Positions 3,712-60,685 are shown, counted from the stretch's first letter. The stretch: 64,000 nucleotides of DNA from Candidatus Latescibacterota bacterium (GCA_965208105.1 OZ242318.1:3008001-3072000); one strand, 5' to 3'. Notes: generated from the sequence alone by a model not told the origin. Numbers and translations: made by a program.

Positions 3712-3740
3712 GGGTCTTCCGTTTTTTTGGCTCAGCCTGA

Positions 3741-5228: not shown

Positions 5229-6748
5229 TTCAGCCCATACTCATCCAGCTTGCGGTAAAGGGTGCGAACCCCGATTCCCAGTGCCTGCGCGGCGCGCTTG
5301 CGGTTTCCGCCAACCTGGTCCAGCGCATGTTCAATGGCTTCTTTCTCCAGGTCCTTGAGGGTGCGTCCTGATAGCGCAGAGGAAGGAGTTGGGGGCGCTT
5401 TTTCCGGTTCAGCAGCAGCGAAGGCGGCGTCCTCCAGGGGATAGATCGGTTCCGCCGCGGGAGGCGGGGCTGCTGCCAGGGACCGCTCTTCCACAATGCG
5501 CCTCAATTCCGATACCTCGCGTTTCAGGTCGAGGAGGGCGAAATATATGAGCTCGCGCTCCGATTGGTCGACCGTCTTATTGGTTGGCACGGGTAATTGG
5601 CGGTGGACTGCAGAAGGCTTTTCCAGGTGAGAGAGCAGATCGCCCGGCTCCACCTTGCCTCGAGGTCCAAGGAAAATCAGGTGCTCGACGAGATTGCGAA
5701 GTTCGCGTACGTTGCCTGGCCAGTCGTACTCCAGGAGGAGATCCATGGCACTGCTGGAGAACCCCTCGAAGCGCGGTCCTTTTTCGGGACTGAGTTGGGT
5801 GAGGAAATGCTGAATCAATTGGGGAATATCCTGCGGACGCCGGCGCAACGGGGGAATCTCGAGTTCTACGACTTTGAGCCTGTGGTAGAGGTCGAGGCGG
5901 AACTCTCGCTGACTGACGGCTTGTTGCAGGTCCTTGTTGGTTGCGGCAATGACCCGGATGTCCACGGAAACGGGATTATGGCCCCCGATCCGGGTAACTT
6001 CCCTCTGTTCCAGGACCCGGAGGAGGCGCACCTGTGCCATGAGAGACATTTCACCGATCTCGTCCAGGAAGACCGTGCCACCGTCCGCCTGCTCGAAAAT
6101 TCCCCGGTATTGGGCCTTGGCATCGGTGAAAGCTCCCTTCTCATGACCAAAAAGTTCGTTTTCCAGCAGGTTTTCCGGAATGGCGGCGCAATTGATGGGC
6201 TTGAAAGGCCGGTCTCGCCGTTGACTGTATTGGTGCAGGGCATAGGCGACGGCATCTTTTCCAACGCCACTTTCTCCAATGAGAAGTACGGTGATCGGCG
6301 CGCTTGCGATCTGAAGGATGCTCTCGCGAAGTTCCTGAATAAGGGGTGATCGGCCGACGAAATCCTGGCCGCCGAGAAATCGCCCCCTCTCCAGCAATCT
6401 TTCTACCGCGTCTTGAATAAGCTCGGGAGCAAATGGGGTTTCCAATATTTCCTCGAGTGGATTGCCCGGGGAAACCCGGTGCCAATCTTCCGCCGAGGCA
6501 GCATACAGAACCAGCACGGGCAAATTTCGGTGTGCATTCAATTCAACGGCACACGCTTCCAGACTTTTCAGGGGTAAGCTCAGGTCGATGATTACAAGAT
6601 CCGCGCCACGGTCCAGCATCGGCGTTAACATTCCGGTATCGCGTACCTCGACCAGATGCCGGGATTCGTTTTCCAGAGCTGCCTTGGAGTCCTCCAGCAG
6701 GCGCCGGTCCTGGGTGAGCAAGAGCAGACGGCGTTTATCTTTTCTCAT
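5225..6748 (-). CDS. Sigma-54-dependent Fis-family transcriptional activator with a degenerate receiver domain
   Basis: Walker A GESGVGKD, GAFTDA loop, FLDEIGE, WPGNVRELRN and C-terminal HTH (AAQALGIGVRTLYRKL). Start placed at MRKDKRR (6748), because the longer ORF-track start runs into a repeat element. Confidence 0.92.
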   Translation of the reverse strand: MRKDKRRLLLLTQDRRLLEDSKAALENESRHLVEVRDTGMLTPMLDRGADLVIIDLSLPLKSLEACAVELNAHRNLPVLVLYAASAEDWHRVSPGNPLEEILETPFAPELIQDAVERLLERGRFLGGQDFVGRSPLIQELRESILQIASAPITVLLIGESGVGKDAVAYALHQYSQRRDRPFKPINCAAIPENLLENELFGHEKGAFTDAKAQYRGIFEQADGGTVFLDEIGEMSLMAQVRLLRVLEQREVTRIGGHNPVSVDIRVIAATNKDLQQAVSQREFRLDLYHRLKVVELEIPPLRRRPQDIPQLIQHFLTQLSPEKGPRFEGFSSSAMDLLLEYDWPGNVRELRNLVEHLIFLGPRGKVEPGDLLSHLEKPSAVHRQLPVPTNKTVDQSERELIYFALLDLKREVSELRRIVEERSLAAAPPPAAEPIYPLEDAAFAAAEPEKAPPTPSSALSGRTLKDLEKEAIEHALDQVGGNRKRAAQALGIGVRTLYRKLDEYGLK

Positions 6749-6855
6749 GGTACAGTGAGGAGAATTCGGGGTTTTCCGGACGGCGGGCAAGACGGCCCTG
6801 GCTGACGAACATCTCCACGGCCTCCAGGAAAATAAAAACTGATTGTGAGGACTAA

Positions 6856-7015
6856 CAGCCCCTTGAAAAAGTCCATCCGGGCTGCGGCTGGCCCTGGCGG
6901 TCGAATACGGCGTTGCGCTCCCTCCCCGAATCCCCTCGATTCGCCTCGGCCGCACGCCTTGCCTTCGACCGACATAACCTGGCCTCGCCTGCAGGGCAAC
7001 TTTATCAACGGGCTG
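6856..7015. mobile_element. MITE-like non-autonomous element with imperfect terminal inverted repeats
   Basis: Left end CAGCCCCTTGAAAAAGT versus reverse complement of the right end CAGCCCGTTGATAAAGT (15/17 identical). Nested internal inverted repeats CGGTCGAA/TTCGACCG and CGAATC/GATTCG. Non-coding and intergenic. Confidence 0.6.
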
Positions 7016-7090
7016 CTTAAGGCCCGGATCGGCATGAGCCGGCCTCCAGCTGATGCATCTGATGCCCGGTTGCGGTCGGGTGATTTCAGC

Positions 7091-10000
7091 TTAAAGGCGC
7101 TGGCGCAGAATTTCGATTCTGTCCGCTGCCATCTGGCCTTGTGGGCTGTCGGTCCCCTCTCGGCGGACGATGCGTTCGAAGACGCTGATTGCAGTTGAAA
7201 GCTCATTCAGGGCTTCATGGCACTGAGCCCGCTTGAAATCGGCGGAGGAAATCCACTGGCTGAAGCCCTCAGCTCCGTGAAAGCTGACGCGGTAATAAGC
7301 CTCTATTGCCTTTCTGTACTCGCCCATGTTCTGATAGGACTCTGCAATGTAGAATCGCGCCTCGGAAGCGTCGTTTCCTCTGGCCCAATCGAGAGTTTTT
7401 TCCAATTGGGCGATGGCCTGGGCGTACTGACCTTTGTCCTTTAAGATAATCCCCAATTGCAACTCCGTCTCCCGCGCCTTGGGGTGGTGGGGGAATTCCC
7501 GCAGAAGGCGAAGAGCGGCCTGGTGAGCCTCTTCGAACTCGAAGACCCTCATGTAGCAATCCAGAAGATTCCAAACAGCTTCTTCCTTGAGGTCTGCCGC
7601 GACATGCTCTTTCAGGACGCGCTTATAGGCTCCGGCAGCTACGAGATAGTTGCGAAGACCGTGGTGGTAGTTGGCCAGGCGCAGATGGACGGCGGCAGAA
7701 TAGGGACTGTGGGGAAAGTTCTTGATAAACAGACTTTGGGCCTGGAGAGCCTGAACACCCCTCTCTTCACTTGGAGAAGCCAGATTCTGCTCCCATAAGG
7801 CCAGGGCAGCGTAGTATGCCCCGTCGTCCGCCCAGTCACCTCCCTTCTTCTCGAGTTGTCGGAAGAATTTAAGGGCCTTTTTGTAGTTCTTTTTCCTCAG
7901 ATGATGTTGGCCCTCTTCGAGCTGAAAGCGCAGAAGCCAGTCCGCATCTTTGGGACTTCGTCGGGAGAAGGCTGCGACTGCTTTGCGGGCTTCTTCGAGG
8001 CGGTCCAGCCTGAAAAGGGCAATAGTGCTCTGGCCGTGAACCTGGGCATCCATGATTTCGGACAAAATCGGCAGATAGGTCTGATATGCCTTGTCCAGGC
8101 GCCCTAGTTCAAAATATAGATTCCCGGCCATTTGAGCCGCATCGGAGGCCAAGGGGCTGTTGGAGAATTCGTCCCTGACTCGCAGCAACTGGGGAATGGC
8201 CTCTTCAGGCCGTCCCACTTTGACCAACAGCTTGGCCTGGTCGAAGAGGATGCTGTCCAATGCCGCCTCTTGGGAGTCCTCTGCCAGAATCTGGTTGTAT
8301 AGTTCCCGGGCTGCTGAATATTCACCCCGGCGATGGTGCGCTTGAGCGAGCCTCCGTTTTATGTATCCACGGGTGTCTTCCCCGGGTCCCTGGAGAGCCA
8401 GCTGGCGGTAGAGCTCTATTGCGCTGGCGTAATTGCCCAATTGGAAGTGAATGTCTGCGATTCGCAATTGAACGGAGGGACGCTGGGGAAAGGCAGGATG
8501 GGACCACAACAGCTCCTGGTATCGGGCAAGGGCGGCACCTGGCCGGTCCTGGCGGATCAGGAGTTTCCCCAGTTCATCGAGGACTTGGTCCGCATGGGAA
8601 AAGGCGGGGTAGTCGCGCAGGACGCGTTCGAGGAAGTCGACCGCAGCCTGGAGCTCGCCCCTGCTGCCATGGCAGAGCCCCAGGCCGAAAAGAGCTTCGG
8701 CATAGAGAGGACTCTCCCGGTCCACCTGGCGGTAGGTTGTAATTGCCCTCTCGAGTTGGGTCGAATCGCTCTTTCCAAGGTGGCGTCGCGCTGAGGCCAG
8801 GTGTAACAGGGCCCTGTCCAGGTGAGGGCTTTCAGCTCCCGCGTGCTTTTCGAGGAGGCCGGAAAAACCACTTTCGAGAAGCTGGTGCCGCAACGAGTCG
8901 GGCGCCCTGGCAGCCTGGGCTTCGACGAGACGGATCTGAGCGCGCAGGGCCCACTCCCCCGAATCAGCCTCTGTAATGAGCCGGTATTTCTGCAATGCCA
9001 CTTGGCGCAGCGAGTCCGTCGCTTCCGGCAGACCTTCGAGTTTGCGCTGACGTGCCAGTCTGAGCAGGCTTTCTCCCAGATAGTACCGGGCTTCAGCGAG
9101 ATAAAGACTGTCGCGGCCGGTGGCAGTGCAAGCTTCGAAAGCACGGGCGGCATTTGCGAAGTCATGGTGGTCGTAGAGAATCTTGGCGAGCTTCATCTGA
9201 GTCTTATGGCGCGGGGCGCCACCGAGCTGGTCGATCCATACCTGGTGCAAGGCACGATTGAGGGCCTTGAGATCCAGGACCGTAAACTCGCGCAGAAATT
9301 CAGTGCGCTCGCGTGCAGCTCGGGACTGAGAATGGGAGGGGAACTGCTCCAGGAATTTCACATACTCGCGCAGAGCCAGGCGAGGCTGGTCATTTTTTTC
9401 GTGGGCTTGAGCTAGATTGAACCGGGCAGTCGCCGCCAGAGCAGATGATCGCTCCGCCAAATCGCGGTAGGCGGATATGGCATCCTGGTAGTACCCGGAT
9501 GCGCCGTAAATTCTGGCCAGGGAAAGAATCACAGGATCTCGGTCCGCGTCGCTGTCAACCTTCTGGAGATAGCGTTGGTACCAGGCAATCGCTGGAGGAT
9601 AGTCCTTGCGGCGCTGGTAGAGGGCGCCCAACTCCCGCAGGGCGGTTATTCCCTCGGGATCCGAAGAATGGGCCCGGATGAGCTCGTGAAAGAGACTGAC
9701 CGCGAGAGGGAACTTTCCCGTCTGCCCACAGGCCACGGCCAGCCCCAGCTGTGCCTGTGCCCGGTGAGCATGTCCCACCGGTAGTTTCTTCAGCAGGGCA
9801 TTGAAGTGGAGGACGGCCTGTTGAGGCTGCCCGTTTCGAAGCCGGGAGTCCGCCAGTCCCAGGTGGGCGCGAATTTTGAGGCCCGCATCCTCAATTTGCC
9901 TGTAGGCGGCCTCGAAAGCATCGCTGGCTTGCTGGAAGTTGTGCCGCTCGTAAAAGAAGGTGGCCTGATCAAGGTAGGCGCTGTCCGACTGGGACGCTGC

Positions 10001-13256: not shown

Positions 13257-15296
13257 ATGCAAACTTGGACATCGATGGCGCCGTACATGGGTCTGGCGGG
13301 TTTGTTCTTCGCCTTGTTGATCTATCAATATATCAAGCGCCAGCCTGGCGGGTCAGAAAAAATGATCGAGATCTCCGACGCGGTGCATGAAGGGGCCATG
13401 GCGTTTCTGCGGCGGGAGTACTCGATCCTCCTGGCCTTTGTTGCTGTCGTGTTCGTCTTGTTGTTCTCCATGGTGGACCAGCGTACAGCGTTTGCCTTCC
13501 TGGCTGGTGCCGGCTGTTCGATTCTGGCAGGTTTCGTCGGAATGAAGGCCGCAACGCGGGCAAATGTGCGCACCGCCCATGCAGCTGCTGAGAAGGGCCA
13601 GGGTCCTGCGCTGAGCATGGCTTTTGCAGGCGGTTCGGTCATGGGATTGGCAGTGGCGAGTCTGGGCCTCCTGGGCGTAGCCACCCTCGCCCAGATTTTT
13701 GGAATATGGGACCATGCCGGCAACGCCAAGGCCATAAACGGCTTTGCCATGGGTGCCAGTTCAATCGCACTATTCGCCAGGGTAGGTGGTGGCATCTTCA
13801 CCAAGACTGCGGATGTGGGAGGGGACCTGGTCGGAAAGGTGGAAGCGGGGATTCCAGAGGACGATCCGCGCAATCCGGCCACCATAGCCGACAATGTGGG
13901 CGACAATGTTGGGGATGTCGCCGGCATGGGTGCCGACATATTCGAATCCTACGTGGGCTCGGTAATCGCCAGCATTGCCATAGCGGCAACAGCATCTGCC
14001 GCCCTCCTGAGCAAATTGGCACCCGAGCTCGACACTGGCCAGGCGCGCCTGGCGGCAATGGCATACCCGGTCATGGTGATCATGATCGGCCTGGTCGCTT
14101 CGCTTGTTGGCGTGCTGGCCGTGCGAGTCCTTCAAAATCGCGATCCGGGGGCTGCATTGAGATATGCCACCTTTGTGGCCGCCGCCCTCATGTTGCTAGG
14201 GGCATATCAGGCGGTGAGAATATTGAATCTTTCCAATGGCCCGTTCCTGGCAGTTCTGTGCGGCGCGGTGGCTGGTATAATTATCGGGCTTCTGACCGAA
14301 TATTATACTGGTGGCAGGCCGGTCCGCTCCATTGCCGAAGCCTCCAAAACCGGGTCGGCCACAAATATTATCACCGGTTTCGCCGTGGGAATGGAGAGCA
14401 CGGCGCTCCCGATCCTGGGCATCGTCGGCGCAATCTTTCTGGCGCATCACTTTGCCGGGCTCTACGGGATCGGGGTGGCGGCGGTGGGTATGCTTGCCAC
14501 GGTGGGAATTACGATGTCAGTGGATGCCTATGGACCTATCGCCGACAATGCCGGGGGGATTACCGAGATGTCGGGTCTGGGCGAAGAAGTCCGGAAAATT
14601 ACTGATGGATTGGATTCCCTGGGGAATACAACCGCAGCCATAGGCAAAGGATTCGCCATCGGGTCGGCGGCTCTGACCGCCCTGGCCCTGTTTTCGGCGT
14701 ACACCACCTCTGTAATGGTCGGTCAAGGAGGCGTGCCTATCGTCATCGACATAACTACTCCCAATGTGGTAATCGGGCTATTCATTGGAGCCGGCATTCC
14801 CTACCTGGCGGGGGCCTTGACCATGAAGTCGGTAGGCAGGGCTGCCTTCAAGATGGTCGAGGAAGTTCGGCGTCAGTTCAGGGAAATTTCAGGGATTATG
14901 GATGGGTCAGGCAAGCCCGACACCCGTCGGTGTGTGGAGATATGCACATCGTCTGCATTAAAGGAAATGATTCTGCCTGGTTTGCTGGCTGTAGTTGCTC
15001 CGGTTGCCGTCGGATTTTCATTGGGGCCGGTGGCCTTGGGAGGCATGCTGGCGGGAGCTACGATCAGCGGGGTACTACTCGCGCTGTTGATGGCCAATAG
15101 TGGCGGTGCCTGGGACAATGCCAAGAAGTGGATCGAGCAAGGCAACCTGGGAGGAAAAGGATCCGAACCCCACAAGGCCGCGGTGGTGGGCGATACCGTT
15201 GGAGACCCGTTCAAGGATACCACGGGACCTTCAATGAATATCCTCATCAAATTGATGTCCGTTGTTTCCCTGGTCCTGGTCCCGCTTTTTGTGTGA
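13257..15296 (+). CDS. hppA: Membrane-integral pyrophosphatase, K+-dependent, probably Na+-translocating
   Basis: [39 protein letters not shown] (Ala at the K+-dependence determinant) and [10 protein letters not shown]. Glu in ADIFESY matches Na+-PPases. Confidence 0.93.
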
Positions 15297-15340
15297 AGAT
15301 GGCAATTTCAATTTCAATCGTTTAGGCACTGGAAAATCCC

Positions 15341-15865
15341 ATGAAGAACTACGAGCTTGTCTGCATCCTGGATCCTCAGTTCGGGGACAATCATTTCGCC
15401 ACAATGGTGGAAAAGTACGAGGGCTACCTTGTGGAGAACAAGGCAACGGTGGTCAACATCGATCACTGGGGAATGCGCCGGATGGCTTATTCTTCCGCAA
15501 GTTTAAAGAAACGCCAGCAGGGATATTACGTGCTTTTTCAGTTCACCGCGCAGCCATCCATTCTCAGTGGGCTGGAACACCAACTTGGTCTCGACGAAGG
15601 AGTTCTGCGCCATCTGGTCGTCGGGGTCAAAGGAGAATTCATGCGCGTCCCACAGCTGGTTCCGGAAGGATCGGTCTTTCAAGAGTCGTCCCCCCGGGAT
15701 AGGGATACCGGCAGGTATAGAGGTGCCCCATCTCCAGCCGCCGAGTCCGGTGGCACGGCCCGCGGGGAATCCCGCAAGGATAAACCGGAAGCTGATGATG
15801 GGAAAAAGGCCCGGGAGGCTGAAGGCGAAGATAGCCAGAAGCGGACGGAGGGTACGGCCAGCTAG
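15341..15865 (+). CDS. rpsF: 30S ribosomal protein S6 with a long charged C-terminal tail
   Basis: MKNYELVCILDP...WGMRRMAY...GYYVL...VLRHLVV. Confidence 0.93.
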   Translation: MKNYELVCILDPQFGDNHFATMVEKYEGYLVENKATVVNIDHWGMRRMAYSSASLKKRQQGYYVLFQFTAQPSILSGLEHQLGLDEGVLRHLVVGVKGEFMRVPQLVPEGSVFQESSPRDRDTGRYRGAPSPAAESGGTARGESRKDKPEADDGKKAREAEGEDSQKRTEGTAS

Positions 15866-48222: not shown

Positions 48223-48283
48223 TCTTCCGGGGAAGTGGGCAACCATTGCATAGACATCGTCCAATTGCCGGCAATAATTGAGA

Positions 48284-50014
48284 ATGAGTGAGCACCATCT
48301 CCTCATTTTCCTGCTTCAAGTCCTTCTGCTGCTCGGTCTGGCCCGCGGCTTCGGAGAAATCTTGCGCCGCCACGGCCATCCCCCCCTCGTCGGCGAGATC
48401 CTCATCGGCGTCTTCCTGGGACCTACTCTCCTGGGCAGGTTCCTTCCACAGGTTCAGAATTTCCTCTTTCCTCCTGACCCCATTCAGTGGGCAATGCTCG
48501 AAACGGTGTCCTGGTTCGGCGTGCTCTTCCTGTTGCTGGAGACCGGCCTTGAAGTAGATGTGTCTGCGGCCTGGCGCCAGCGCGGCCCGGCGCTGAGGAT
48601 CGGGATCATCGGGGTGATAATACCCCTGGTCCTGGGTTTCCTTCTCTCCTACCTGCTCCCCGACCGCTATCTCGCCGATCCGGATCAGCGGTTGATCTTC
48701 GCCCTGTTTCTGGGCACCACCATGGCCATAAGTGCCATGGTAATCATCGCCCGCGTGCTCCACGACCTGGATCTGGTAAAAAGCGATCTTGGACTCGTGA
48801 CCCTTTGCGGCTATGCGATAAATGACATCCTCGCCTGGGTGGTCTTCAGCCTGGTGCTCGCCATGGGAACCCAGGCCGTCCTGCACCTCAGTACCGTTGG
48901 CTTCCTCCTGGTATTTACCCTGGCCTTTACCTTCCTGTGTCTCACCTTGGGTCTGCGGGTGGTGGACCGCATCATCGCCTACATCGGCATGCAATTGCCC
49001 GGACACCCCGGCGCAGTCCTCAGCTTTGTCTGCTGCCTGGGGTTGTTGTGCGGAGCAGTGACGCAATGGATCGGGCTGACCGCGCTGTTCGGCTTCTTTA
49101 TCGCCGGCATCATGGCCGGAGAAGCGCGGGCCCTTTCCGAGCGCACGCGGCAGATAATCAGTCAGATGGTCCATGCCATCTTCGTTCCTCTCTACTTTGC
49201 CGGGATTGGCCTGCGACTCGATTTCCTGGCCAACTTCGATTTGCTGCTGGTGGTTTTCGTTACGGTGGTATCGATTGCCGGCAAGTTCCTCGGCGCCTGG
49301 GTCGGAGCCCTGGGACGAAGACTCTCAGGCCACGACCGGCTGTCCATCGCCATAGCTTTTACTCCGAGCGGTGTTACTGGAATCGTCGTTGCCGGAGTGG
49401 CGCTGGAGCACCAGATCCTTTCAACACCGGTGTTCGTGTCCATTGTCTTCTCGGCCATTATCTCGTCGCTGCTCGTCGCTCCGTGTTTGGCCTGGTCTAT
49501 TCGCCGGCGCCGGGAAGTGAATATCGTAGAGTTTTTCGCGCCTGGCGGGGTAATACCCGATCTGCTTGGCAGCACGCGATCAAAAGCAATCCTGGAGCTC
49601 TGTGCGGCGGGATCAGAGAGCGAAGGAATGCCCGACCTCGAGGTCCTGCATGCCGCGGTCAGCAACCGGGAACAACTGATGGGAACGGGAACGGGCAACC
49701 AGGTGGCCATGCCGCATGCTCGCCTGGAGATGCTGGATAGACCGGTCCTCGTTTTTGGCCGGTCTGCCGCCGGCATCGAGTGGAATGCCCCCGATGGCCT
49801 TCCTGTCCACCTGGTATTCCTGCTTCTCACGCCCGAGAGGGAAGAGGGATTGCAACTTCAGATACTCGCGGCACTTGCGCGCGGCATGAGCAATGCCGGA
49901 GCACGGGAGAAATTGCTGCGGGCCGAGAGCGAGGACCAGGTCTGGCATGCCCTGCAGGATGCTCTCAGTGCCCAGAATCTGGTTCGCGTAAAGGCCGGAA
50001 GCCATCCCGGGTGA
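48284..50014 (+). CDS. CPA2 cation:proton antiporter fused to a PTS EIIA(Ntr/Fru)-like domain
   Basis: GEILIGVFLGP, GLE.D, ND..AW and F.P.YF..IGL motifs; C-terminal RE....TG.G..VAMPHAR...GIEW.APDG.PV. Confidence 0.9.
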   Translation: MSEHHLLIFLLQVLLLLGLARGFGEILRRHGHPPLVGEILIGVFLGPTLLGRFLPQVQNFLFPPDPIQWAMLETVSWFGVLFLLLETGLEVDVSAAWRQRGPALRIGIIGVIIPLVLGFLLSYLLPDRYLADPDQRLIFALFLGTTMAISAMVIIARVLHDLDLVKSDLGLVTLCGYAINDILAWVVFSLVLAMGTQAVLHLSTVGFLLVFTLAFTFLCLTLGLRVVDRIIAYIGMQLPGHPGAVLSFVCCLGLLCGAVTQWIGLTALFGFFIAGIMAGEARALSERTRQIISQMVHAIFVPLYFAGIGLRLDFLANFDLLLVVFVTVVSIAGKFLGAWVGALGRRLSGHDRLSIAIAFTPSGVTGIVVAGVALEHQILSTPVFVSIVFSAIISSLLVAPCLAWSIRRRREVNIVEFFAPGGVIPDLLGSTRSKAILELCAAGSESEGMPDLEVLHAAVSNREQLMGTGTGNQVAMPHARLEMLDRPVLVFGRSAAGIEWNAPDGLPVHLVFLLLTPEREEGLQLQILAALARGMSNAGAREKLLRAESEDQVWHALQDALSAQNLVRVKAGSHPG

Positions 50015-53460: not shown

Positions 53461-53916
53461 GTGAAGGCAACGTCCCCTCCTGGACAGTTTGAACCGGTCG
53501 AGCCCGCCATGCTCCACTGGACGATTCATCCCCTCGCCGAGGAACCGCGAGTCAAATCGATTCTGCTGGCCGCCCTCATAATTGGTCTCCCCATCGGGGC
53601 GGTCTTCAGTTTCGATGGCCTGATCCATGGCGTGATCTCCCTGGCAGTGCTCGCCGCTTCCCTGTCCCGCTACTTTCTGCCCACTAGCATCACTCTGGAT
53701 CCTGAAGGGGTCCATACTTCACATTTGGGATGGCGGCGGCAGCGTTCCTGGACGGAGTTCCGCCGGGTGGACGTCCACGAGGACGGTGTCTTCCTCAGCC
53801 CATTTGCCCGTTCCAGCCGCATGGATCCATTCAGAGGGTATTTTCTGACCTTCAGGAGCAACCGCAACCAGGTCACTCGCTTTGTGGAGGAATATGTCTC
53901 GCAAGGAGCGCCTTAG
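53461..53916 (+). CDS. Hypothetical protein with two TM helices and a bacterial PH-like beta domain; first gene of the GlmL-like operon
   Basis: W..HP, two TM helices, then YFLPT.I.LD.EGV...W..FRRV...GVFLSPF..SRMD.FRG. GTG start behind an AGGAG-like RBS; the start could instead be 53326. Confidence 0.65.
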   Translation: MKATSPPGQFEPVEPAMLHWTIHPLAEEPRVKSILLAALIIGLPIGAVFSFDGLIHGVISLAVLAASLSRYFLPTSITLDPEGVHTSHLGWRRQRSWTEFRRVDVHEDGVFLSPFARSSRMDPFRGYFLTFRSNRNQVTRFVEEYVSQGAP

Positions 53917-54226
53917 AGCGTGGTGGGCGCACGCCTTTGCCACTGAGAGCCGGGAGGAATTCGCCTCCGCCGACCGCCAACTGGTGGAGCGCCTTGCCCG
54001 GTTCGTGGTGCGGCGGCGCATGACCGTGCCGGTGCTCATGGTCCTGGAAACCGGCAGACCGCTGAATTTCATCGGCAGTCAGTTCCTGGCTTTTTTGGCG
54101 CCCTTCCTCACCTTGATCTTCTCGCAAACCGAATACGATCGCTTCGTCAGGCTCCTGGACAAGCGCAAGAGCGTAGACCTGATCATCGATGCCATCGTCG
54201 AAGGGGAAAACGGCCTCCGTGGATAA
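53894..54226 (+). CDS. Conserved hypothetical small helical protein (110 aa)
   Basis: GGAGGA RBS; A..VV.R.M.VP....LE..RPLNFIGSQ...F..P motif; overlaps both neighbours. Confidence 0.75.
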   Translation: MSRKERLRAWWAHAFATESREEFASADRQLVERLARFVVRRRMTVPVLMVLETGRPLNFIGSQFLAFLAPFLTLIFSQTEYDRFVRLLDKRKSVDLIIDAIVEGENGLRG

Positions 54227-56030
54227 CTTGAACGTGGTCATCGCCACCGACTGTGGCAGCACCACCACCAAAGCGATTCTGATTGAGAAGAAGGGAGATA
54301 CCTATCGCCAGACATTTCGCGGTGAGGCGCCGACGACGGTGGAGGCGCCCTTCGAGGACGTAACCCGGGGGGTGCTCAATGCCATCCAGGAGGTGGAAGA
54401 ATTATCGGGTCGGAAGATCCTCGAAGGAGAGCACATCATCACGCCTGCGGTGGGGGGCGAGGGGGTGGACATCTATATCTCCACCAGCAGTGCCGGAGGT
54501 GGATTGCAGATGATGGTCACCGGCGTGGTGCAGTCGATGACTGCCGAGAGTGCGCAGCGTTGCGCATTGGGTGCCGGAGCCATCGTGATGGACGTCCTGG
54601 CTTCCAACGACGGACGGCTGCCCCACCAGAAGATCGAGCGCATTCGACAACTGCGGCCCGACATGGTCCTGCTTTCGGGAGGCACGGACGGCGGCACCGT
54701 AAGCCACGTTGTGGAACTGGCCGAATTCATAGCCGCGGCGGATCCGAAGCCCCGGTTCGGGTCCAGTTTCAAACTGCCGGTAATCTACGCCGGCAACCGC
54801 GAAGCCCGCGATGAGGTAGCCCTTAGCCTGGGAGAAAAAGTTGACCTGACCCAGACCGACAATATTCGACCCGTGCTCGAGGAGGAAAATCTTGGGCCGG
54901 CGCGGAAGGTGATCCACGACCTCTTCCTCGAGCACGTAATGGCCCAGGCGCCTGGATACCGCAAGTTGATGGAGTGGCCCGGCGCTCCTATCATGCCCAC
55001 TCCCGCTGCCGTGGGCCAGATAATCCAGACCGTTTCCAGGAGGCAGGGGATCGACGTTCTCGGAGTAGACATCGGCGGCGCCACCACCGATGTGTTCAGT
55101 GTGTTCGGCGAGGTTTTCAACCGCACGGTGAGCGCCAACCTGGGCATGTCCTACAGTATCTCGAATGTACTGGCCGAGGCTGGGCTCGACGATGTATTGC
55201 GCTGGGTGCCTTTCCGGATCGAAGAATCCGACCTGCGCGACCGAATCAAGAACAAGATGATTCGGCCCACCACGATCCCCCAGGTCATGGAGGAGCTCCA
55301 GATAGAGCATGCCATCGCCCGAGAGGCACTTCGTCTCGCCTTTGCCCAGCACCTCGATCTCGCCGTGGGTCTGAAAGGGGTGCAGACAGAGCGCACCTTG
55401 TCCGATGTATTCGAGCAGAGCGGCGGCGGAGAAAGCCTGATCCGTATGATGGATCTCGACCTTCTGGTCGGCAGCGGGGGCGTACTGTCCCATGCTCCCA
55501 GGCGCGCTCAGGCCGCCTCCATGCTGATTGATGCGTTCCAACCCCAGGGCGTGACCCGTCTGGCGGTGGACAGCATCTTCATGATGCCCCATCTCGGGGT
55601 TCTATCCACCGTCGACGAAAAGGCTGCCTCGGATGTATTCGAGTGCGACTGCCTGATATACCTGGGTACCTGCGTGGCGCCTGTGAGACGCGGCAAGGCA
55701 GGTGATGTGTGCGCCTCCTACGAGGTTGTCCTGCCGGATGGGAAGGAGCGCGGAGAACTGCGCCTCGGCGACCTTCGCCGTTACCATCTGCCCGCGGATT
55801 CCGAGGCCCAGGTCGTGGTGCGGCCGGAGCGCGGTTGGGATGCGGGTGCGGGTCCGGGGCAGGAGCTGCAGACCACCGCGAAGGGGGGCGTTGCGGGGCT
55901 TATTCTGGACGGTCGCGGACGGCCCATTCGATTCGCCCGGGAAGAGGACGAGCGATCGGCGCAGATTGCGGATTGGAACCGGACCCTGGATCTGTACAAC
56001 GAGCTTCACGCCCCTCTCGCCGAAGGGTAA
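54219..56030 (+). CDS. glmL: GlmL/MutL-like (glutamate mutase accessory family) ASKHA-fold ATPase, 603 aa
   Basis: Phosphate-1 TDCGSTTTK, SSAGGGL, LLSGGTDGG, phosphate-2 VDIGGATTDVFS, RTVSANLGMSYS and adenosine GSGGVLSH motifs; extra C-terminal domain ending GG..GLILDGRGRP. Confidence 0.85.
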   Translation: MDNLNVVIATDCGSTTTKAILIEKKGDTYRQTFRGEAPTTVEAPFEDVTRGVLNAIQEVEELSGRKILEGEHIITPAVGGEGVDIYISTSSAGGGLQMMVTGVVQSMTAESAQRCALGAGAIVMDVLASNDGRLPHQKIERIRQLRPDMVLLSGGTDGGTVSHVVELAEFIAAADPKPRFGSSFKLPVIYAGNREARDEVALSLGEKVDLTQTDNIRPVLEEENLGPARKVIHDLFLEHVMAQAPGYRKLMEWPGAPIMPTPAAVGQIIQTVSRRQGIDVLGVDIGGATTDVFSVFGEVFNRTVSANLGMSYSISNVLAEAGLDDVLRWVPFRIEESDLRDRIKNKMIRPTTIPQVMEELQIEHAIAREALRLAFAQHLDLAVGLKGVQTERTLSDVFEQSGGGESLIRMMDLDLLVGSGGVLSHAPRRAQAASMLIDAFQPQGVTRLAVDSIFMMPHLGVLSTVDEKAASDVFECDCLIYLGTCVAPVRRGKAGDVCASYEVVLPDGKERGELRLGDLRRYHLPADSEAQVVVRPERGWDAGAGPGQELQTTAKGGVAGLILDGRGRPIRFAREEDERSAQIADWNRTLDLYNELHAPLAEG

Positions 56031-56055
56031 CTTTTCCAGCGAAGAAATCGACGAT

Positions 56056-57183
56056 ATGGCCCATGCCTATACACCCGGCTTGCGGGTGACTCCCTGGACC
56101 ACGATCCAAAGACAACGCCGCCTTCCACTGAAGGGAAATGTGCTCGTCGAAACAGGCGCTCAAGTGCGCCGCGACGAGATTGTGGCCAGGACGGAACTTC
56201 CGGGCAACGTCACCGCCCTGAACCTGGTGAATCGCCTCGGTGTAACGCCTGAAGAACTTCCTGGGTACATGATCGCAGGCCAGGGAGACTCCATCGAGGC
56301 AGGTGACCCCATCGCGGCCACCAGGCCCCTTATCAAGTGGTTCAAAACGACGATTGAATCCCCGGTCAGCGGCACTGTGGAGAGCATATCTTCGGTGACA
56401 GGCCAGGTCATTCTGCGCCAGCGCCCCAGGCCCGTCGAAGTTCTCGCCTACGTCGATGGCGTTGTGGTCGAGGTGTTCCCCGAAGAAGGGGTTCTCGTGG
56501 AGACGAGCGGTGCTTTTGTGCAGGGGATCTTCGGGGTTGGGGGCGAATGCTGGGGGCCTCTGCACCTGGTTGCGTCGGCGCCGGATGAGACGCTGGAGGC
56601 CGCAAATATCGGCGCGGAGTGCAGGGGCAAAATTGTCGTGGGTGGAGGTATGGTAACCAGCGGCGCCCTTGCCCGCGCCCGTGAGGTAGGCGCGGCGGGG
56701 GTAATCGGGGGTGGAATCCGCGACCAGGACCTGCGCGACCTCCTGGGCTACGATTTGGGGGTGGCCATCACAGGCGCTGAAGAATTCGGCCTGACGGTTA
56801 TCGTTACCGAGGGGTTCGGGGATATTGCCATGGCCCGTAAAACCTTTGATATCCTGCAAGCCTGTTGCGGACAGGAGGCCTCGATTTCCGGTGCTACCCA
56901 GATTCGCGCCGGGGTCGTGCGCCCGGAAATCATTGTGCCCGAACGCCGGGAAGCGGGGGATGCGGATGAAAGGTCCGGGCAAAAGGAGAAGGGCATTCAG
57001 AAGGGCGATTTCCTGCGGGTGATCCGGGCGCCCGACTTCGGCCGGATTGGACGCGTTTGCTCCCTGCCTGCCGAACTGGTGGAAGTGGGGTCCGGAGCGA
57101 GAGTCCGGGTGCTGGGAATGGAGTTCGAAGACGGTTCCCGTCTCCTGGTCCCGCGGGCCAACGTCGAGGCGATCGAAGGATGA
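56056..57183 (+). CDS. Conserved hypothetical soluble protein (barrel-sandwich-hybrid repeats, swiveling-like domain, KOW-like C-terminus)
   Basis: MAHAYTPGL start; VLVETGAQV...IVA and GQGDSIEAGDPIA...SPVSGTVESI; GKIVVGGG...A..VGAAGVIGGG; KGDFLRVIRAP.FGRIGRV...VPRANVE. Confidence 0.8.
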   Translation: MAHAYTPGLRVTPWTTIQRQRRLPLKGNVLVETGAQVRRDEIVARTELPGNVTALNLVNRLGVTPEELPGYMIAGQGDSIEAGDPIAATRPLIKWFKTTIESPVSGTVESISSVTGQVILRQRPRPVEVLAYVDGVVVEVFPEEGVLVETSGAFVQGIFGVGGECWGPLHLVASAPDETLEAANIGAECRGKIVVGGGMVTSGALARAREVGAAGVIGGGIRDQDLRDLLGYDLGVAITGAEEFGLTVIVTEGFGDIAMARKTFDILQACCGQEASISGATQIRAGVVRPEIIVPERREAGDADERSGQKEKGIQKGDFLRVIRAPDFGRIGRVCSLPAELVEVGSGARVRVLGMEFEDGSRLLVPRANVEAIEG

Positions 57184-57266
57184 GAACCGGCTGGGAAGCG
57201 GCGACGCGCCCATGGCGCGACCGGCGCGGACTATTCCGGCATTCACGGTAGAAAGAAAGCTTGATC

Positions 57267-58451
57267 ATGTCCCGATTGATTTTCCTGCTACTCCTGGGTG
57301 GTGTTTTCTCGAACCCAGCCCAGTCGCTGCAACCGCCAGAGCGATTCGAGGCCTTCGACACGCCCAACGATGCCGGCGGGAGCATTACCCTGACCTGGCC
57401 CCGGTCGTCCTCGGTACCGGCGGGGGAGGTCTATCTGGTCTCGGTGGCCGTCGCGCCGGACGGCCCCTTCTATCCGGCGGCGGAAGTAGATGCAGACGGG
57501 GATCTCGCCTCCGGTGGCGAGGAGGACCGAAACCTTCACCTTGCCCTCGTGAGGGAATTTTTGGTGGGCGAGCGAAAGGTGTCCCTGGAGAACAACAGGC
57601 CCTACTATTTCCGTCTTGGACTGCGGGGTGCGGGCGAGGACTTTCCCGGGGGGTCGACGGTAGAGGCGGAAGCCCGGGGCAATCTGTTCAATTGGCTGAA
57701 GCTGAACAATCTGATCCTGGGGACCTCCTTTTCCCTCATCATCCTGTGTGCCATCGCCTTGGCCCGGCGTCGAGCTCTTTACATTCGGAGAATCGCCGGT
57801 CTCGAAGCCCTGGACGAAGCCCTGGGACGAGCTACCGAGATGGGCAGGGCCGTCCTGTTCATCCACGGCCTGAGAGAAATGGAGCAGATTTCCACCATTG
57901 CCGCCGTAAACATTCTGGGGCGCATCGCCCGGCGCACCGCCGAATTCGATACGGCCTTGCGCGTAGCCAACTCCAACCCGGTGGTCATGGCGGTGAGCCA
58001 GGAAACCGTGAAGGAGGCCTACCTGGAGGTCGGCCGGCCGGATGCCTACAATCCGGACAATATCTTTGTAGCCGGCACAGATCAGTTCAGCTATGCGGCG
58101 GCGGTGGAAGGGATGATGATGCGCGAGCGGCCGGCCGCACACATCATGATGGGTTATTTCTATGCCGAGTCGCTTCTATTGGCCGAAACCGGCTCTACCA
58201 CGGGCGCCATTCAGATCGCCGGGACCGATGCTTTTACCCAGCTTCCATTTTTTGTTACAACCTGCGACTACACCTTGTTGGGCGAAGAACTGTACGCCGC
58301 CAGCGCATACCTCTCGCGCGAGCCCCGGCTTCTGGGCAGCCTCAAAGGGCAGGACATCGGCAAAGGCATGCTGATCGTCGTTATCGTGCTCGGCACCTTG
58401 CTGGCTTGCCTGGATCTTCCGCTTCTGACAAGTTTTTTCAGCGCGCATTGA
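57267..58451 (+). CDS. Exported FN3-like domain plus DUF6754-like membrane-anchored domain protein
   Basis: Signal peptide; P...AFDTPNDAGGSITLTW FN3-like start; TM helix; IRRIAGL.A.DEA.GRATEMG...AE.G...GA.QIAGT...QLPFF...CDY.L.GEELYAA.AY; C-terminal TM helix. Confidence 0.8.
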   Translation: MSRLIFLLLLGGVFSNPAQSLQPPERFEAFDTPNDAGGSITLTWPRSSSVPAGEVYLVSVAVAPDGPFYPAAEVDADGDLASGGEEDRNLHLALVREFLVGERKVSLENNRPYYFRLGLRGAGEDFPGGSTVEAEARGNLFNWLKLNNLILGTSFSLIILCAIALARRRALYIRRIAGLEALDEALGRATEMGRAVLFIHGLREMEQISTIAAVNILGRIARRTAEFDTALRVANSNPVVMAVSQETVKEAYLEVGRPDAYNPDNIFVAGTDQFSYAAAVEGMMMRERPAAHIMMGYFYAESLLLAETGSTTGAIQIAGTDAFTQLPFFVTTCDYTLLGEELYAASAYLSREPRLLGSLKGQDIGKGMLIVVIVLGTLLACLDLPLLTSFFSAH

Positions 58452-58458
58452 GGAGGAA

Positions 58459-59118
58459 GTGATGCTATTCCTGAGTCGAACCCTTCCCGTAATCGTCGCA
58501 TTTGGATTCGGGCTAATCGGCATCGCCATTTACTATATCCCGCATGCCAGTGCGCAGAACCTGGAGAGAGAGCTCGCGTTGTGGCTGCGCATTGTTCTGG
58601 CCTTTGCCTACTTCCTGGGCCTCTACAGCCTGGCGAACTTGCACTGGGAGCGTATCCGTCAGCGCGGTTCCGGCTGGGGCTACAGCCTCGTCGCCTATAT
58701 CAGTTTCGGGGTGATGTTTCTCTTTGTCGTTTTCAACGACGGAAGCGGTCCATTCAAGCCCCAGGCCGAGGCCGGGGGGTATCAATGGCTCTTTCAATAC
58801 GTACACGTTCCCTGCACTTCGACCATGTTTTCCATTCTGGCCTTTTTCATCGCGTCGGCGGCCTATCGCACCTTTCGAGCGCGCACCCCGGAGGCGGCCA
58901 TATTGCTCGTCGCCGCGGTGATCGTCATGCTCGGGCGCGTCCCCATCGGCCGGGCGATTGCCGATATCATACCCCTGGCCTCCGAATGGCTCATGGAGGT
59001 GCCAAACCTGGCTGCCAAGCGCGGCATTCTCCTGGGTGTCAGCCTGGGCGCCATCGCCACCTCGCTCCGCATTATCTTTGGAATCGAGCGCTCCTACCTG
59101 GGAGGAGGTGAGGAGTAA
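58459..59118 (+). CDS. Conserved hypothetical polytopic membrane protein (219 aa)
   Basis: About 5-6 TM helices; P..STMFSILAFFIASAAYRTFRART.EA and AAKRGI.LG..LG.I..SLRI..G.ER motifs; AGGAGG RBS. Confidence 0.8.
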   Translation: MMLFLSRTLPVIVAFGFGLIGIAIYYIPHASAQNLERELALWLRIVLAFAYFLGLYSLANLHWERIRQRGSGWGYSLVAYISFGVMFLFVVFNDGSGPFKPQAEAGGYQWLFQYVHVPCTSTMFSILAFFIASAAYRTFRARTPEAAILLVAAVIVMLGRVPIGRAIADIIPLASEWLMEVPNLAAKRGILLGVSLGAIATSLRIIFGIERSYLGGGEE

Positions 59119-59945
59119 TGCAGCGCCTGATGAACATCGACCGCCGCATCATTTTTGTCCTGGTTTTCCTGGGGGTGGCGATACCCCTTCTGGTGGACTT
59201 CTACCTTCCGATCAAACCGACCTCTACGGTCCAGGCGGTCTACGATGAAATCGAGCGGGTGGCCGCGATTGACGAGGGTACGGTGCTGCTGAGTTTTTCC
59301 TACGGCGCCAGTACCGAGCCGGAGATGCAGCCCATGGCCCGTTCCCTGGTCAGGCATTGCTTCAGCCGCGACATAAAGGTGGTTGCCATCTGCCTGTGGC
59401 CCGAGGCCCCGGGTTTGGCCCAGGAGGTGCTGCAAACCACCGCCGCCGAATTCGGCAAGACATACGGTGTCGACTACGCCTTCATGGGCTACAAGCCGGG
59501 CAACTACAGCGTCATTCTCAATATGGGGCAGGACTTCCACGACGCATTTCCCCGCGACGCCTGGGGGGCGCGATCGAATACCGTTCGGTTGACGAGGGAC
59601 ATCCGGTCGCTGCGCGACTTCGACTTTGTCATTGACCTGGCGGCGGGCGATTCGATCGAGTTCTGGTGGATACCCTTTGGACAGGAGAAGTTCGGATTCC
59701 CCTTTGCAGGGGGTTGTACGGCGGTGATGGCTCCGGACCTCTTCCCCTTCCTGCAGTCCCGGCAGCTCATCGGCCTGATCGGAGGCCTGGCAGGAGCAGC
59801 TGAATATGAAATTCTGATGAATCGCCGCGATTCGGCTACCGAGGCGATGCGTGCCCAGTCGATTACACACCTCATCATCATCGCCTTCATTCTGTTCGGC
59901 AATGCCGTCTTTTTTCTGACGCGCCGGCGCAGCGTCCACCCGTAG
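59118..59945 (+). CDS. Conserved hypothetical protein with N- and C-terminal TM helices flanking an alpha/beta domain (275 aa)
   Basis: DRRIIF TM helix, Y..S..PE.QPM, YGVDY..MGYKPG, GGL.GAAEYE and M.AQS..H motifs; TAATG coupling to the previous gene. Confidence 0.8.
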   Translation: MQRLMNIDRRIIFVLVFLGVAIPLLVDFYLPIKPTSTVQAVYDEIERVAAIDEGTVLLSFSYGASTEPEMQPMARSLVRHCFSRDIKVVAICLWPEAPGLAQEVLQTTAAEFGKTYGVDYAFMGYKPGNYSVILNMGQDFHDAFPRDAWGARSNTVRLTRDIRSLRDFDFVIDLAAGDSIEFWWIPFGQEKFGFPFAGGCTAVMAPDLFPFLQSRQLIGLIGGLAGAAEYEILMNRRDSATEAMRAQSITHLIIIAFILFGNAVFFLTRRRSVHP

Positions 59946-59956
59946 AGGAGGCAGTA

Positions 59957-60685
59957 TTGACTCGCGACACCTGTATATTCCTGGCCTTCACTCTGCTTTT
60001 CATCGGCGTCAACATCTATTTCCTGGCTGATGGGACGCTGAGGTTGGATTGGACCGGCTTTGGCATTATTGTGGCGGCAGGCCTTACCCTTGCTCTCTAC
60101 AGCTTTCTCTACAAGGACAACCCGCTGTTCAAATTTGCCGAGCACATTTTCGTGGGCGTAGCCGCGGCCTATGTTTTCGGCCAGTACTGGTATCCGACGA
60201 TTTACGGTGAAATCGTCGCCAAGTTTGCCGCCCTTGGGTCGGAGGAGGCGGAGGCCCAGGGGAGCACCTGGTGGCTGCTCGTGCCATCGGGCCTGGGCAT
60301 TCTGATGTTGACCCGTTTCTCGCGGCGAATCGGCTGGCTCAGCCGCATTTCATTTGCTTTCTATGTCGGTCTGGGCGCCGGCCTTACCATTCCACGATTC
60401 ACTTCTTCCTTTATTCTATCCCAGCTGGAACCCATGCTGGTGCCCCTGAGTTGGGATTTTGAAGGGTTGAATCTCTTCATCATCCTGGTCGGCGTGGTTA
60501 CGGTGCTAATCTACTTTTTCTTTTCGGTGGAACACAGCGGTGCCGTCGGTCACGCTTCCAAGATCGGCATCTGGTTCCTGATGGTATCTTTCGGTGCTTC
60601 GTTCGGATATACCATCATGGCGCGCCTTTCCCTTCTGATCGGCCGCCTGCGCTTTCTCCTCGACGACTGGCTGCACGTCATGTGA
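59957..60685 (+). CDS. Conserved hypothetical polytopic membrane protein (242 aa)
   Basis: TL..YSFLYKDNP.FK.AEH.FVG...Y, L.YFFFS.EH and FLMVSFGASFGYT.MAR.SLL.GR motifs; TTG start with AGGAGG RBS. Confidence 0.8.
   Translation: MTRDTCIFLAFTLLFIGVNIYFLADGTLRLDWTGFGIIVAAGLTLALYSFLYKDNPLFKFAEHIFVGVAAAYVFGQYWYPTIYGEIVAKFAALGSEEAEAQGSTWWLLVPSGLGILMLTRFSRRIGWLSRISFAFYVGLGAGLTIPRFTSSFILSQLEPMLVPLSWDFEGLNLFIILVGVVTVLIYFFFSVEHSGAVGHASKIGIWFLMVSFGASFGYTIMARLSLLIGRLRFLLDDWLHVM

Follow-up and report, generated by a model that had tools for sequence, protein, structure and literature searches.

What does an ATPase related to an accessory factor of B12-dependent mutases do when its gene stands among genes for membrane proteins? 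GlmL genes lie between or beside the genes for the subunits of B12-dependent mutases (glmS/glmE). The window analysed here, a stretch of 64,000 nucleotides (nt) from a Candidatus Latescibacterota bacterium (GCA_965208105.1, OZ242318.1:3008001-3072000), holds a cluster of eight genes, here called g1 to g8, in which a GlmL-like ATPase (g3) and a soluble partner (g4) are accompanied by a set of membrane proteins. An earlier note on this DNA had proposed that the ATPase serves a membrane complex. One part of that proposal, that g3 works with the neighbouring membrane proteins and is not a B12-mutase accessory here, is strongly supported by comparison of sequences across genomes, through both synteny and joint presence and absence; physical binding between the ATPase and these proteins is a prediction. 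What work the ATPase would perform at the membrane is a separate question, to which several answers are weighed below.

The eight genes are co-oriented on the + strand at 53461-60685 (Table 1). A list of open reading frames (ORFs), with its starts, stops and gaps checked directly, reproduced exactly the genes, the strand and the seven spacings given in the earlier note: -23, -8, +25, +83, +7, -1 and +11 nt from g1 to g8. GGAGG-like stretches lie upstream of g1, g2, g6, g7 and g8, and a scan for promoters and terminators gave counts not above those in shuffled sequence. In the Pfam scan of the window proteins, g1, g2, g6, g7 and g8 had no match, and ABC_tran and BPD_transp_1 were found in none of the eight. 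All eight proteins matched zero PADLOC families (anti-phage defence models) at E ≤ 0.01, and sequence and profile searches of the PDB with g3 to g8 returned nothing below E 0.05. The view that the system is uncharacterised fits the literature searches, which at listing level, with subscription papers and supplements outside their scope, found nothing on the cluster, on DUF6754 or on PF13941.

Table 1. The gene cluster in the window, with hydrophobic segments as judged by hydropathy
Gene	Coordinates	Strand	Length (amino acids)	Start and overlaps	Hydrophobic segments	Product
g1	53461..53916	+	151	GTG start	two	small membrane protein
g2	53894..54226	+	110	23-nt overlap with g1, 8-nt overlap with g3	one	
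g3	54219..56030	+	603	GTG start; upstream ATG at 54189 gives 613 amino acids		PF13941 ASKHA ATPase
g4	56056..57183	+	375			soluble partner, barrel-sandwich/KOW
g5	57267..58451	+	394	TTG at 57261 gives 396 amino acids	N-terminal signal-like segment and two further	DUF6754 protein
g6	58459..59118	+	219		about six	polytopic membrane protein, no known family
g7	59118..59945	+	275		two, one at each end (transmembrane)	no known family
g8	59957..60685	+	242		at least four	polytopic membrane protein, no known family

Is the cluster a lasting association or a chance arrangement? The protein collection holds at least 7996 relatives of g5, and the 80 loci compared here are the best of at least 604 genome stretches that encode one; they were thus fetched through g5 similarity, their genes were located by tblastn, and several of their flanks end at contig ends. 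Downstream of g5, g6 follows directly in 80/80 loci, g7 is present in 79/80 and g8 in 77/80, the three loci that miss g8 doing so at or near contig ends. Upstream, g4 is found in 63/80 loci, g3 in 58/80, g2 in 56/80 and g1 in 35/80. One strand and one gene order prevail throughout, with the exception of a single locus (L085). Other genomes thus repeat the gene set in an unchanged order, and the cluster is not a product of chance. The earlier note had staked its proposal on synteny between the membrane genes and the GlmL-like ATPase in other genomes; that synteny was found among the 80 loci and the proposal survived. Outside the group of loci L006-L037, median identity to the window proteins is 66% for g3, 53% for g6, 52% for g5, 51% for g4, 50% for g8, 45% for g7 and 41% for g2.

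The best 80 loci are titled Latescibacterota, Gemmatimonadota, Planctomycetota (Scalindua, Brocadia, Anammoxibacter and Phycisphaerae), Nitrospirota, Methylomirabilota, Thermodesulfobacteriota, Myxococcales and unclassified bacteria, and WOR-3 and Eremiobacterota are among the further record titles that carry the system. It is widespread, with Nitrospira-type nitrite oxidisers, anammox and other Planctomycetota, Methylomirabilota and Latescibacterota as carriers. The record of L007 is titled Gemmatimonadota, but in GTDB its genome belongs to the window's own phylum, and Gemmatimonadota is therefore not counted as an independent phylum. In the g3 tree, too, rows titled Gemmatimonadota are mixed among Latescibacterota rows, and the submitters' phylum labels of these metagenome-assembled genomes look unreliable.

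The loci also reveal how the cluster is built. In Brocadia-type and some other loci g5 to g8 are present and g2 to g4 are not within 10 kb. In 5/5 such genomes a g3 orthologue (65-70% identity) is encoded at another place, and likewise in G176 and G177 (7/7 in total); in four split loci examined, g4 adjoins g3 in three and g2 adjoins g3 in two. A TAA seen inside the g3 matches of split genomes proved to be the gene's own terminal stop codon. From this, g2-g3-g4 and g5-g6-g7-g8 emerge as the units, and these gene arrangements show the cluster to be a conserved system of two modules.

Do the two modules also share a fate where they are not neighbours? Matches to PF13941, the family of g3, at E ≤ 4e-83 were counted as the g3/GlmL type and cross-tabulated against PF20539, the family of g5, from scans of the window's phylum and of samples of Nitrospirota and Planctomycetota genomes at least 90% complete. 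In the window's phylum both families are present in 139 of 168 genomes and neither in 23, with only PF13941 in two (G002, G126) and only PF20539 in four (G025, G028, G063, G127). The Nitrospirota sample divides cleanly into 25 genomes with both and 126 with neither (151 genomes; either family by itself, 0). Among the 151 Planctomycetota, 38 have both, 111 neither, two only PF20539 (G376, G379) and none only PF13941. Over the three phyla this amounts to 202 genomes with both, 260 with neither, two with only PF13941 and six with only PF20539 (470 genomes). The six discordant genomes of the window's phylum are 57-90% complete, and 12 of its 23 genomes with neither family have weak ASKHA matches only (E between 5e-4 and 1e-7).

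In 25/25 Nitrospirota carriers both genes lie on the same contig and strand, with starts 2.8-3.7 kb apart. The marker genes of Planctomycetota are often hundreds of kb apart (280 kb in G353, about 500 kb in G362 and G426) or on different contigs. Loss is joint as well: in the closed genomes G098 and G099 neither family is present, and G097 of the same genus has both. Unlinked co-presence in Planctomycetota, together with co-loss within a genus, points to a functional tie and not to mere hitch-hiking in an operon. The genome comparisons thus show that the two modules share inheritance and loss, also in genomes where they lie apart. A quick g3 tree, in which Nitrospirota and Methylomirabilota each form a single clade and Planctomycetota show two changes, fits mostly vertical descent of the gene. 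Some Planctomycetota carry extra copies: two DUF6754 genes stand about 3.3 kb apart in tandem in G340, G368, G379, G403 and G450, and among these genomes and G350, G374, G408 and G470 there are short DUF6754 forms (open frames of 260-300 amino acids, about 310 bits) as well as cases of two or three PF13941 genes. This pattern suggests paralogous copies of the system.

If g3 belongs with membrane proteins, what distinguishes it from GlmL? The protein matches Pfam MutL PF13941 over profile positions 1-448 of 450 (1.6e-128, 429.7 bits, gathering cut-off 27). Its scores against the NCBIfam models all fall below their cut-offs: 231.5 bits against 475 for the equivalog GlmL NF040745, 208.1 against 600 for Or-4 NF040744, and 168.4 against 204.05 for glmL_fam TIGR01319. 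In the numbering of the 613-residue form, the ASKHA residues D21, G23, S24, T25, K28, D294, G296, G297, T300 and D301 are invariant in 56/56 g3 sequences, and G430 and G431 are kept in 55/56 (one gap); the phosphate-1, phosphate-2 and adenosine motifs, which had been described as intact, are so in these sequences. On these residues g3 qualifies as an ASKHA ATPase with its motifs intact and a predicted ATP site that is strictly conserved. It is about 140 residues longer than canonical GlmL, owing to insertions and to a C-terminal domain of about 125 residues. Four cysteines are conserved or nearly so, C22 in 56/56 sequences, C488 and C495 in 55/55 and C508 in 50/55. Identity is 34% to the canonical 470-residue GlmL of the same phylum and 66-80% to the g3 orthologues of other phyla; in a second comparison the ATPase is 62-75% identical between phyla. 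With the hydantoinase/oxoprolinase-type ATP-dependent hydrolases and carboxylases (Hydantoinase_A, PF01968) g3 shares the broad ASKHA branch, and it has weak matches to Hydantoinase_A (22.2 bits) and Hydant_A_N (17.9 bits), both just under the Pfam cut-offs; those enzymes, however, are soluble and without a membrane module, and the g3 cluster has no HyuB-type catalytic partner.

No mutase for g3 to serve was found in the window's genome. This genome is one closed contig of 4.85 Mb (93.9% estimated completeness) with one PF13941 gene and one PF20539 gene. PF06368 (Met_asp_mut_E) and PF01642 (MM_CoA_mutase) were not found in it, nor was PF09043 (Lys-AminoMut_A), for which the search was without a positive control. 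Of three B12-binding matches a single one exceeds its cut-off, and it belongs to a corrinoid protein encoded next to a URO-D-type gene. The earlier observation of no mutase or B12-binding gene holds for the cluster and, as regards PF06368 and PF01642, for the whole genome; the alternative then raised, reactivation of a B12 mutase encoded elsewhere, is not supported. A canonical GlmL does exist in the phylum: a genus (g24) has a second PF13941 gene, of 470 amino acids and 532 bits, directly after a gene for a 149-residue B12-binding protein. This paralogue's locus (L091:6435-8293, G056:C1), where a 619-residue ORF without a Pfam match follows, probably represents an operon for a B12 mutase or aminomutase, distinct from the system described here. 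With GlmL/MutL and Or-4, then, g3 shares the family PF13941 and intact ASKHA motifs, whereas it differs from them in its sub-cut-off equivalog scores, its distance from canonical GlmL, its Cys-bearing C-terminal domain, its co-occurrence with DUF6754 membrane genes and the lack of a mutase partner among those sought in the genome. These comparisons show g3 to be a paralogue of GlmL and not GlmL proper, and not a B12-mutase accessory here.

The partner g4 consists of a probable N-terminal barrel-sandwich-hybrid domain (RnfC_N/NqrA_N/biotin-lipoyl-like), a central domain of unassigned kind and a C-terminal KOW-like barrel. Among 29 family members, matches at E ≤ 1 were obtained to Biotin_lipoyl in 22, RnfC_N in 20, NQRA_N in 9 and KOW in 6, the best RnfC_N match being 1.6e-6. 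In the window's own g4, Biotin_lipoyl and RnfC_N are sub-threshold, with an RnfC_N-type barrel-sandwich score of 18.8 bits against a cut-off of 25.6. The hairpin lysines K94 and K97 are present in 50/63 and 54/63 sequences; because they are not invariant, g4 is not a biotin or lipoyl carrier. A profile search of 1.84 billion representatives at 50% identity gave 3462 matches at E ≤ 0.001 and 1093 at E ≤ 1e-30, and the Atlas look-alikes of g4 are its own family. Among the best 150 matches are two proteins of about 1000 residues, both with an N-terminal MutL part and a C-terminal g4 part. One, P0142 (995 residues, MutL 12-485, g4 621-994), represents a cluster of 8 distinct 995-residue sequences on 18 contigs; the cluster of the other, P0213, comprises 4 sequences of 1003 residues, one of which is named 'glutamate mutase L [Candidatus Ozemobacteraceae]'. 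This fusion of g3 to g4 in some lineages suggests that the two proteins pair physically. Two further kinds of candidate fusion were rejected: in L008, L015, L016, L018 and L023 a stop codon separates g3 from g4, and 800-residue open frames suggesting a g4-g5 fusion reflect frame overlap, the genes being in different frames with stops between.

How close does g4 bring the system to the Rnf and Nqr complexes? An N-terminal domain like that of RnfC, NqrA and PduS is suggested by matches to RnfC_N (20/29) and NQRA_N (9/29) that range from sub-threshold to moderate, and g4, as NqrA does, forms a soluble subunit whose gene adjoins genes for membrane proteins. The likeness ends there: an hhalign comparison of g4 with NqrA of the same phylum covers only columns 15-119, the N-terminal approximately 100 residues (probability 18%, E 0.0013), g4 has no Pfam matches to NADH/FMN, SLBB, Fe-S or NqrA C-terminal domains, and g6 and g8 match no Rnf or Nqr membrane family in Pfam. 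A true NqrA is encoded in the window's genome at C1:1300272-1300550 (L100; NQRA_N 1.6e-39, 451 amino acids) and in 21/61 genomes of the phylum searched. The organism accordingly has a Na+-NQR-type complex besides the system studied.

Among the membrane proteins g5 is the best anchored in a family. It matches PF20539 (DUF6754) over profile positions 3-254 of 257 (7.1e-113, 376.4 bits, cut-off 27), so that of the FN3 and DUF6754 domains once ascribed to it the second stands; Pfam finds no fn3 domain in this g5, and some longer homologues carry PF00041. The protein begins with a signal-like segment and a beta-rich, lineage-variable head, followed by a transmembrane segment, a highly conserved domain of about 200 residues and a second transmembrane segment. 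Conservation starts at the first transmembrane segment: nearly all of the 62 columns invariant in 36 sequences from several phyla lie past residue 165, and many are acidic or polar, with Cys335 among them. Longer homologues, in forms up to 1475 residues, have FN3 copies or PQQ-like propeller heads. One Atlas cluster is named FN3, with an fn3 domain in 10% of its members, and the Atlas structure neighbours of a g5 homologue are DUF6754 clusters only. By the positive-inside rule we infer an extracytoplasmic head and a cytoplasmic conserved domain.

The remaining membrane proteins have no such family. In g6, H62, R137, R140, R188 and E210 are invariant (34 sequences), and in g8, D54, E62, R130, Q156, H193, R223 and R230 (31 sequences); neither has a PDB relative by profile. 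g7 has a domain of about 210 residues between its two terminal transmembrane segments, which the positive-inside rule would place in the periplasm, and no PDB relative. Pfam scans at lenient thresholds pointed to no consistent assignment for g7, g8 or g1. One row of the g7 alignment, with an automatically picked ORF, strongly matches HEAT_2 (2.1e-26); the HEAT protein may be a neighbour or a fusion partner, or the ORF may have been chosen wrongly. Paralogy of g5 with g7 and of g6 with g8 was considered and rejected, since hhalign shows no relation. g2 combines a polar N-terminal part with one hydrophobic hairpin-like stretch, matches no Pfam or NCBIfam family and lies directly upstream of g3 in 56/80 loci; it is presumed to be the membrane anchor of the ATPase module. 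The least conserved member is g1, with homologues in 31/32 loci of L006-L037 and 4/48 elsewhere. Its two hydrophobic segments fit the earlier description; of the PH-like character also ascribed to it there are weak matches in 4/23 members (bPH_6 in three, bPH_7 in one), and its C-terminal part is possibly bacterial-PH-like.

A further clue comes from the neighbourhood. Genes of Opp-type ABC importers are interleaved with or flank the cluster in 26/80 loci, and in 24/32 of L006-L037; in the window's phylum they belong to one orthologue group. The complete importer comprises an SBP_bac_5 binding protein, two BPD_transp_1 permeases and two ATPases with oligo_HPY, and it can be split in two by g4 to g8. 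The complete order g1 g2 g3, OppA OppB OppC, g4-g8, OppD OppF is found in L013, L028 and L037, and L026 has the same order from OppA onward, where its contig begins. In L027, L029, L030, L031, L033, L034 and L035, OppD and OppF come directly after g8 with no OppABC within 10 kb; in L032 and L036, OppF and OppD are downstream and convergent. OppA stands directly upstream of g1 in L007-L011, L015, L016, L018, L023 and L024, and L021 has OppA upstream and OppB and OppC downstream. OppD/F-type ATPases follow g8 in L044 and L054 (Anammoxibacter, Planctomycetota). Outside the 26, a 622-residue ORF directly after g8 in L085, absent from the tblastn list, clusters with SBP_bac_5. The two Opp halves of L013 lie at 2664-8857 and 13599-15595; a transposase-domain (DUF772) ORF at L013:6010-7590 is inserted between OppB and OppC. 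Other genes recur nearby: TonB-dependent receptor genes downstream in 11 loci, genes for peptidase-like proteins of about 1200 residues in 10, and, in the neighbourhood survey, an aminotransferase IV gene near the cluster.

The comparison with Opp/Dpp importers is instructive. These carry out ATP-using uptake with a binding protein, two polytopic proteins and cytoplasmic ATPases, and in relatives of the window one Opp group is physically interleaved with the cluster. The cluster's ATPase, in contrast, is of the ASKHA and not the P-loop kind, and none of the eight proteins has ABC_tran or BPD_transp_1. Nor do g6 and g8 stand in for OppB and OppC, since the interleaved loci have a full Opp set besides.

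What, then, would the ATPase do for the membrane proteins? The reading we favour, tentatively and as possible more than probable, is that the system is an ATP-energised machine for transport or vectorial processing that is not of the ABC, P-type or rotary kind. In this scheme g3, permanently paired with g4, would bind and hydrolyse ATP at the cytoplasmic side of the membrane, where g2 (with g1 where present) would hold the pair. Energy would pass to a complex of g5 to g8 through the conserved cytoplasmic domain of g5, and that complex would move or process a substrate imported from beyond the inner membrane; within the window's phylum the system may share a pathway with the one Opp-type peptide importer. 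Pointers to such a transport-like role are the two polytopic proteins g6 and g8 with their invariant charged residues, the g5 head that varies between lineages (FN3 or PQQ-like propeller), and the surroundings, with Opp genes in 26/80 loci and TonB-dependent receptor and peptidase genes downstream. The bolder proposal of a new class of ATP-driven inner-membrane transporter or translocase, in which an ASKHA motor and a barrel-sandwich/KOW partner act on four membrane families without known relatives, is doubtful.

Several points weigh against this interpretation. We know of no ASKHA ATPase that powers a transporter, and g5 to g8 are without homology to any transporter family in Pfam, NCBIfam and PDB profile searches. 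Relatives of GlmL are regarded as chaperone-like or enzyme-like, which fits the rivals equally. The inferred topology and docking site rest on hydropathy and charge only. In the window's own genome the link to Opp is missing: there the orthologous OppABC (C1:2350894-2355130) and OppDF (C1:2587589-2589541) are 233 kb apart and the cluster lies at a third place (3.061-3.069 Mb). By tblastn, no Opp genes stand at Nitrospirota, Scalindua or Brocadia loci, and most of the Opp-linked loci are related members of a single phylum. The link is real there, hinted at in a second phylum and not universal. The co-occurrence counts, too, overstate independence, because genomes within one phylum are kin.

Could g3 and g4 instead be an ATP-driven chaperone or reactivase, which resets or loads a membrane enzyme formed by the DUF6754 domain of g5 and by g6 to g8? 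The named PF13941 members are mutase accessory proteins by their NCBIfam names, a maintenance-factor role has been proposed for GlmL, EutA and DdrA, and an RnfC_N-like g4 recalls PduS beside the PduG reactivase. The many invariant polar and acidic residues of the DUF6754 core, together with Cys335, look enzyme-like, and the C-terminal domain of g3 has conserved cysteines. Yet no cofactor-binding or catalytic family was found in g5 to g8 with Pfam and NCBIfam, the genome searches found no B12 enzyme, and both the variable outer head of g5 and the uptake-gene neighbourhood would be left unexplained. On balance we consider this account somewhat unlikely.

The catalytic step might also reside in g3 and g4 themselves, as a membrane-anchored ATP-dependent enzyme that would act on a small imported molecule by phosphoryl transfer or by opening an amide or lactam; g5 to g8 and the Opp importer would deliver this substrate in a metabolon or by group translocation. 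The weak Hydantoinase_A and Hydant_A_N matches and the family relation of g3 to the hydantoinase branch would suit such an enzyme, as would the interleaved importer of L013, L026, L028 and L037 and the nearby aminotransferase IV and peptidase genes. It would lack a HyuB-like partner, however, its Opp link is mainly that of one phylum and absent in the window's own genome, and four dedicated membrane proteins exceed what a substrate channel of an enzyme needs; we regard it as unlikely.

A role in sensing or in trans-envelope structure, with g5 and g7 reporting or holding the state of the envelope and g3 and g4 as an ATP-dependent switch inside, is quite improbable. It would draw on the extracytoplasmic g5 heads that vary between FN3 and PQQ-like propeller, and on the large domains that g5 and g7 each have between two transmembrane segments, predicted on opposite sides of the membrane; other ASKHA proteins, namely FtsA, PilM and MreB, act at membranes with bitopic partners. 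Against it, Pfam and NCBIfam found no kinase, helix-turn-helix or cyclase output domain, g3 falls in the enzyme/chaperone branch and not the actin-like one, and the system is dispensable in the closed relatives G098 and G099. Finally, that g3 is an ordinary GlmL, accessory to a B12 glutamate or ornithine mutase encoded elsewhere and unrelated to the membrane genes, has the family PF13941 and the name 'glutamate mutase L' given to a fused homologue in one source on its side, and is already contradicted and scarcely credible given scores under all three NCBIfam cut-offs, the three mutase families not found in the closed genome (PF09043 without positive control), a sole over-cut-off B12-binding match that is the corrinoid protein beside a URO-D-type gene, a canonical 470-residue form that is a separate paralogue beside a B12-binding subunit in relatives, and the tight co-occurrence of g3 with DUF6754.

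Whatever its work, this is a machine of seven to eight proteins that is common in the surveyed genomes, both markers being present in 139/168 of the window's phylum, 25/151 Nitrospirota and 38/151 Planctomycetota. Its carriers include organisms central to the nitrogen cycle, and four of its proteins are without any family. If the motor reading is true, the system would represent a new way to couple ATP to work at the membrane; if g3 and g4 are a chaperone or an enzyme, it would provide a testable second context for the GlmL family, whose assigned role was derived from the genes around it. It also corrects an annotation, as such proteins are named 'glutamate mutase L' though no mutase was found in this genome.

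Elsewhere in the window, a + strand gene at 48278-50014 encodes a Na+/H+ exchanger fused to a C-terminal PTS EIIA-2 domain (PF00999 + PF00359). Downstream of it are genes for a cytidylate-kinase-like protein, a CBS-pair protein, a 2-hydroxyacid dehydrogenase and a PhyH-family dioxygenase.

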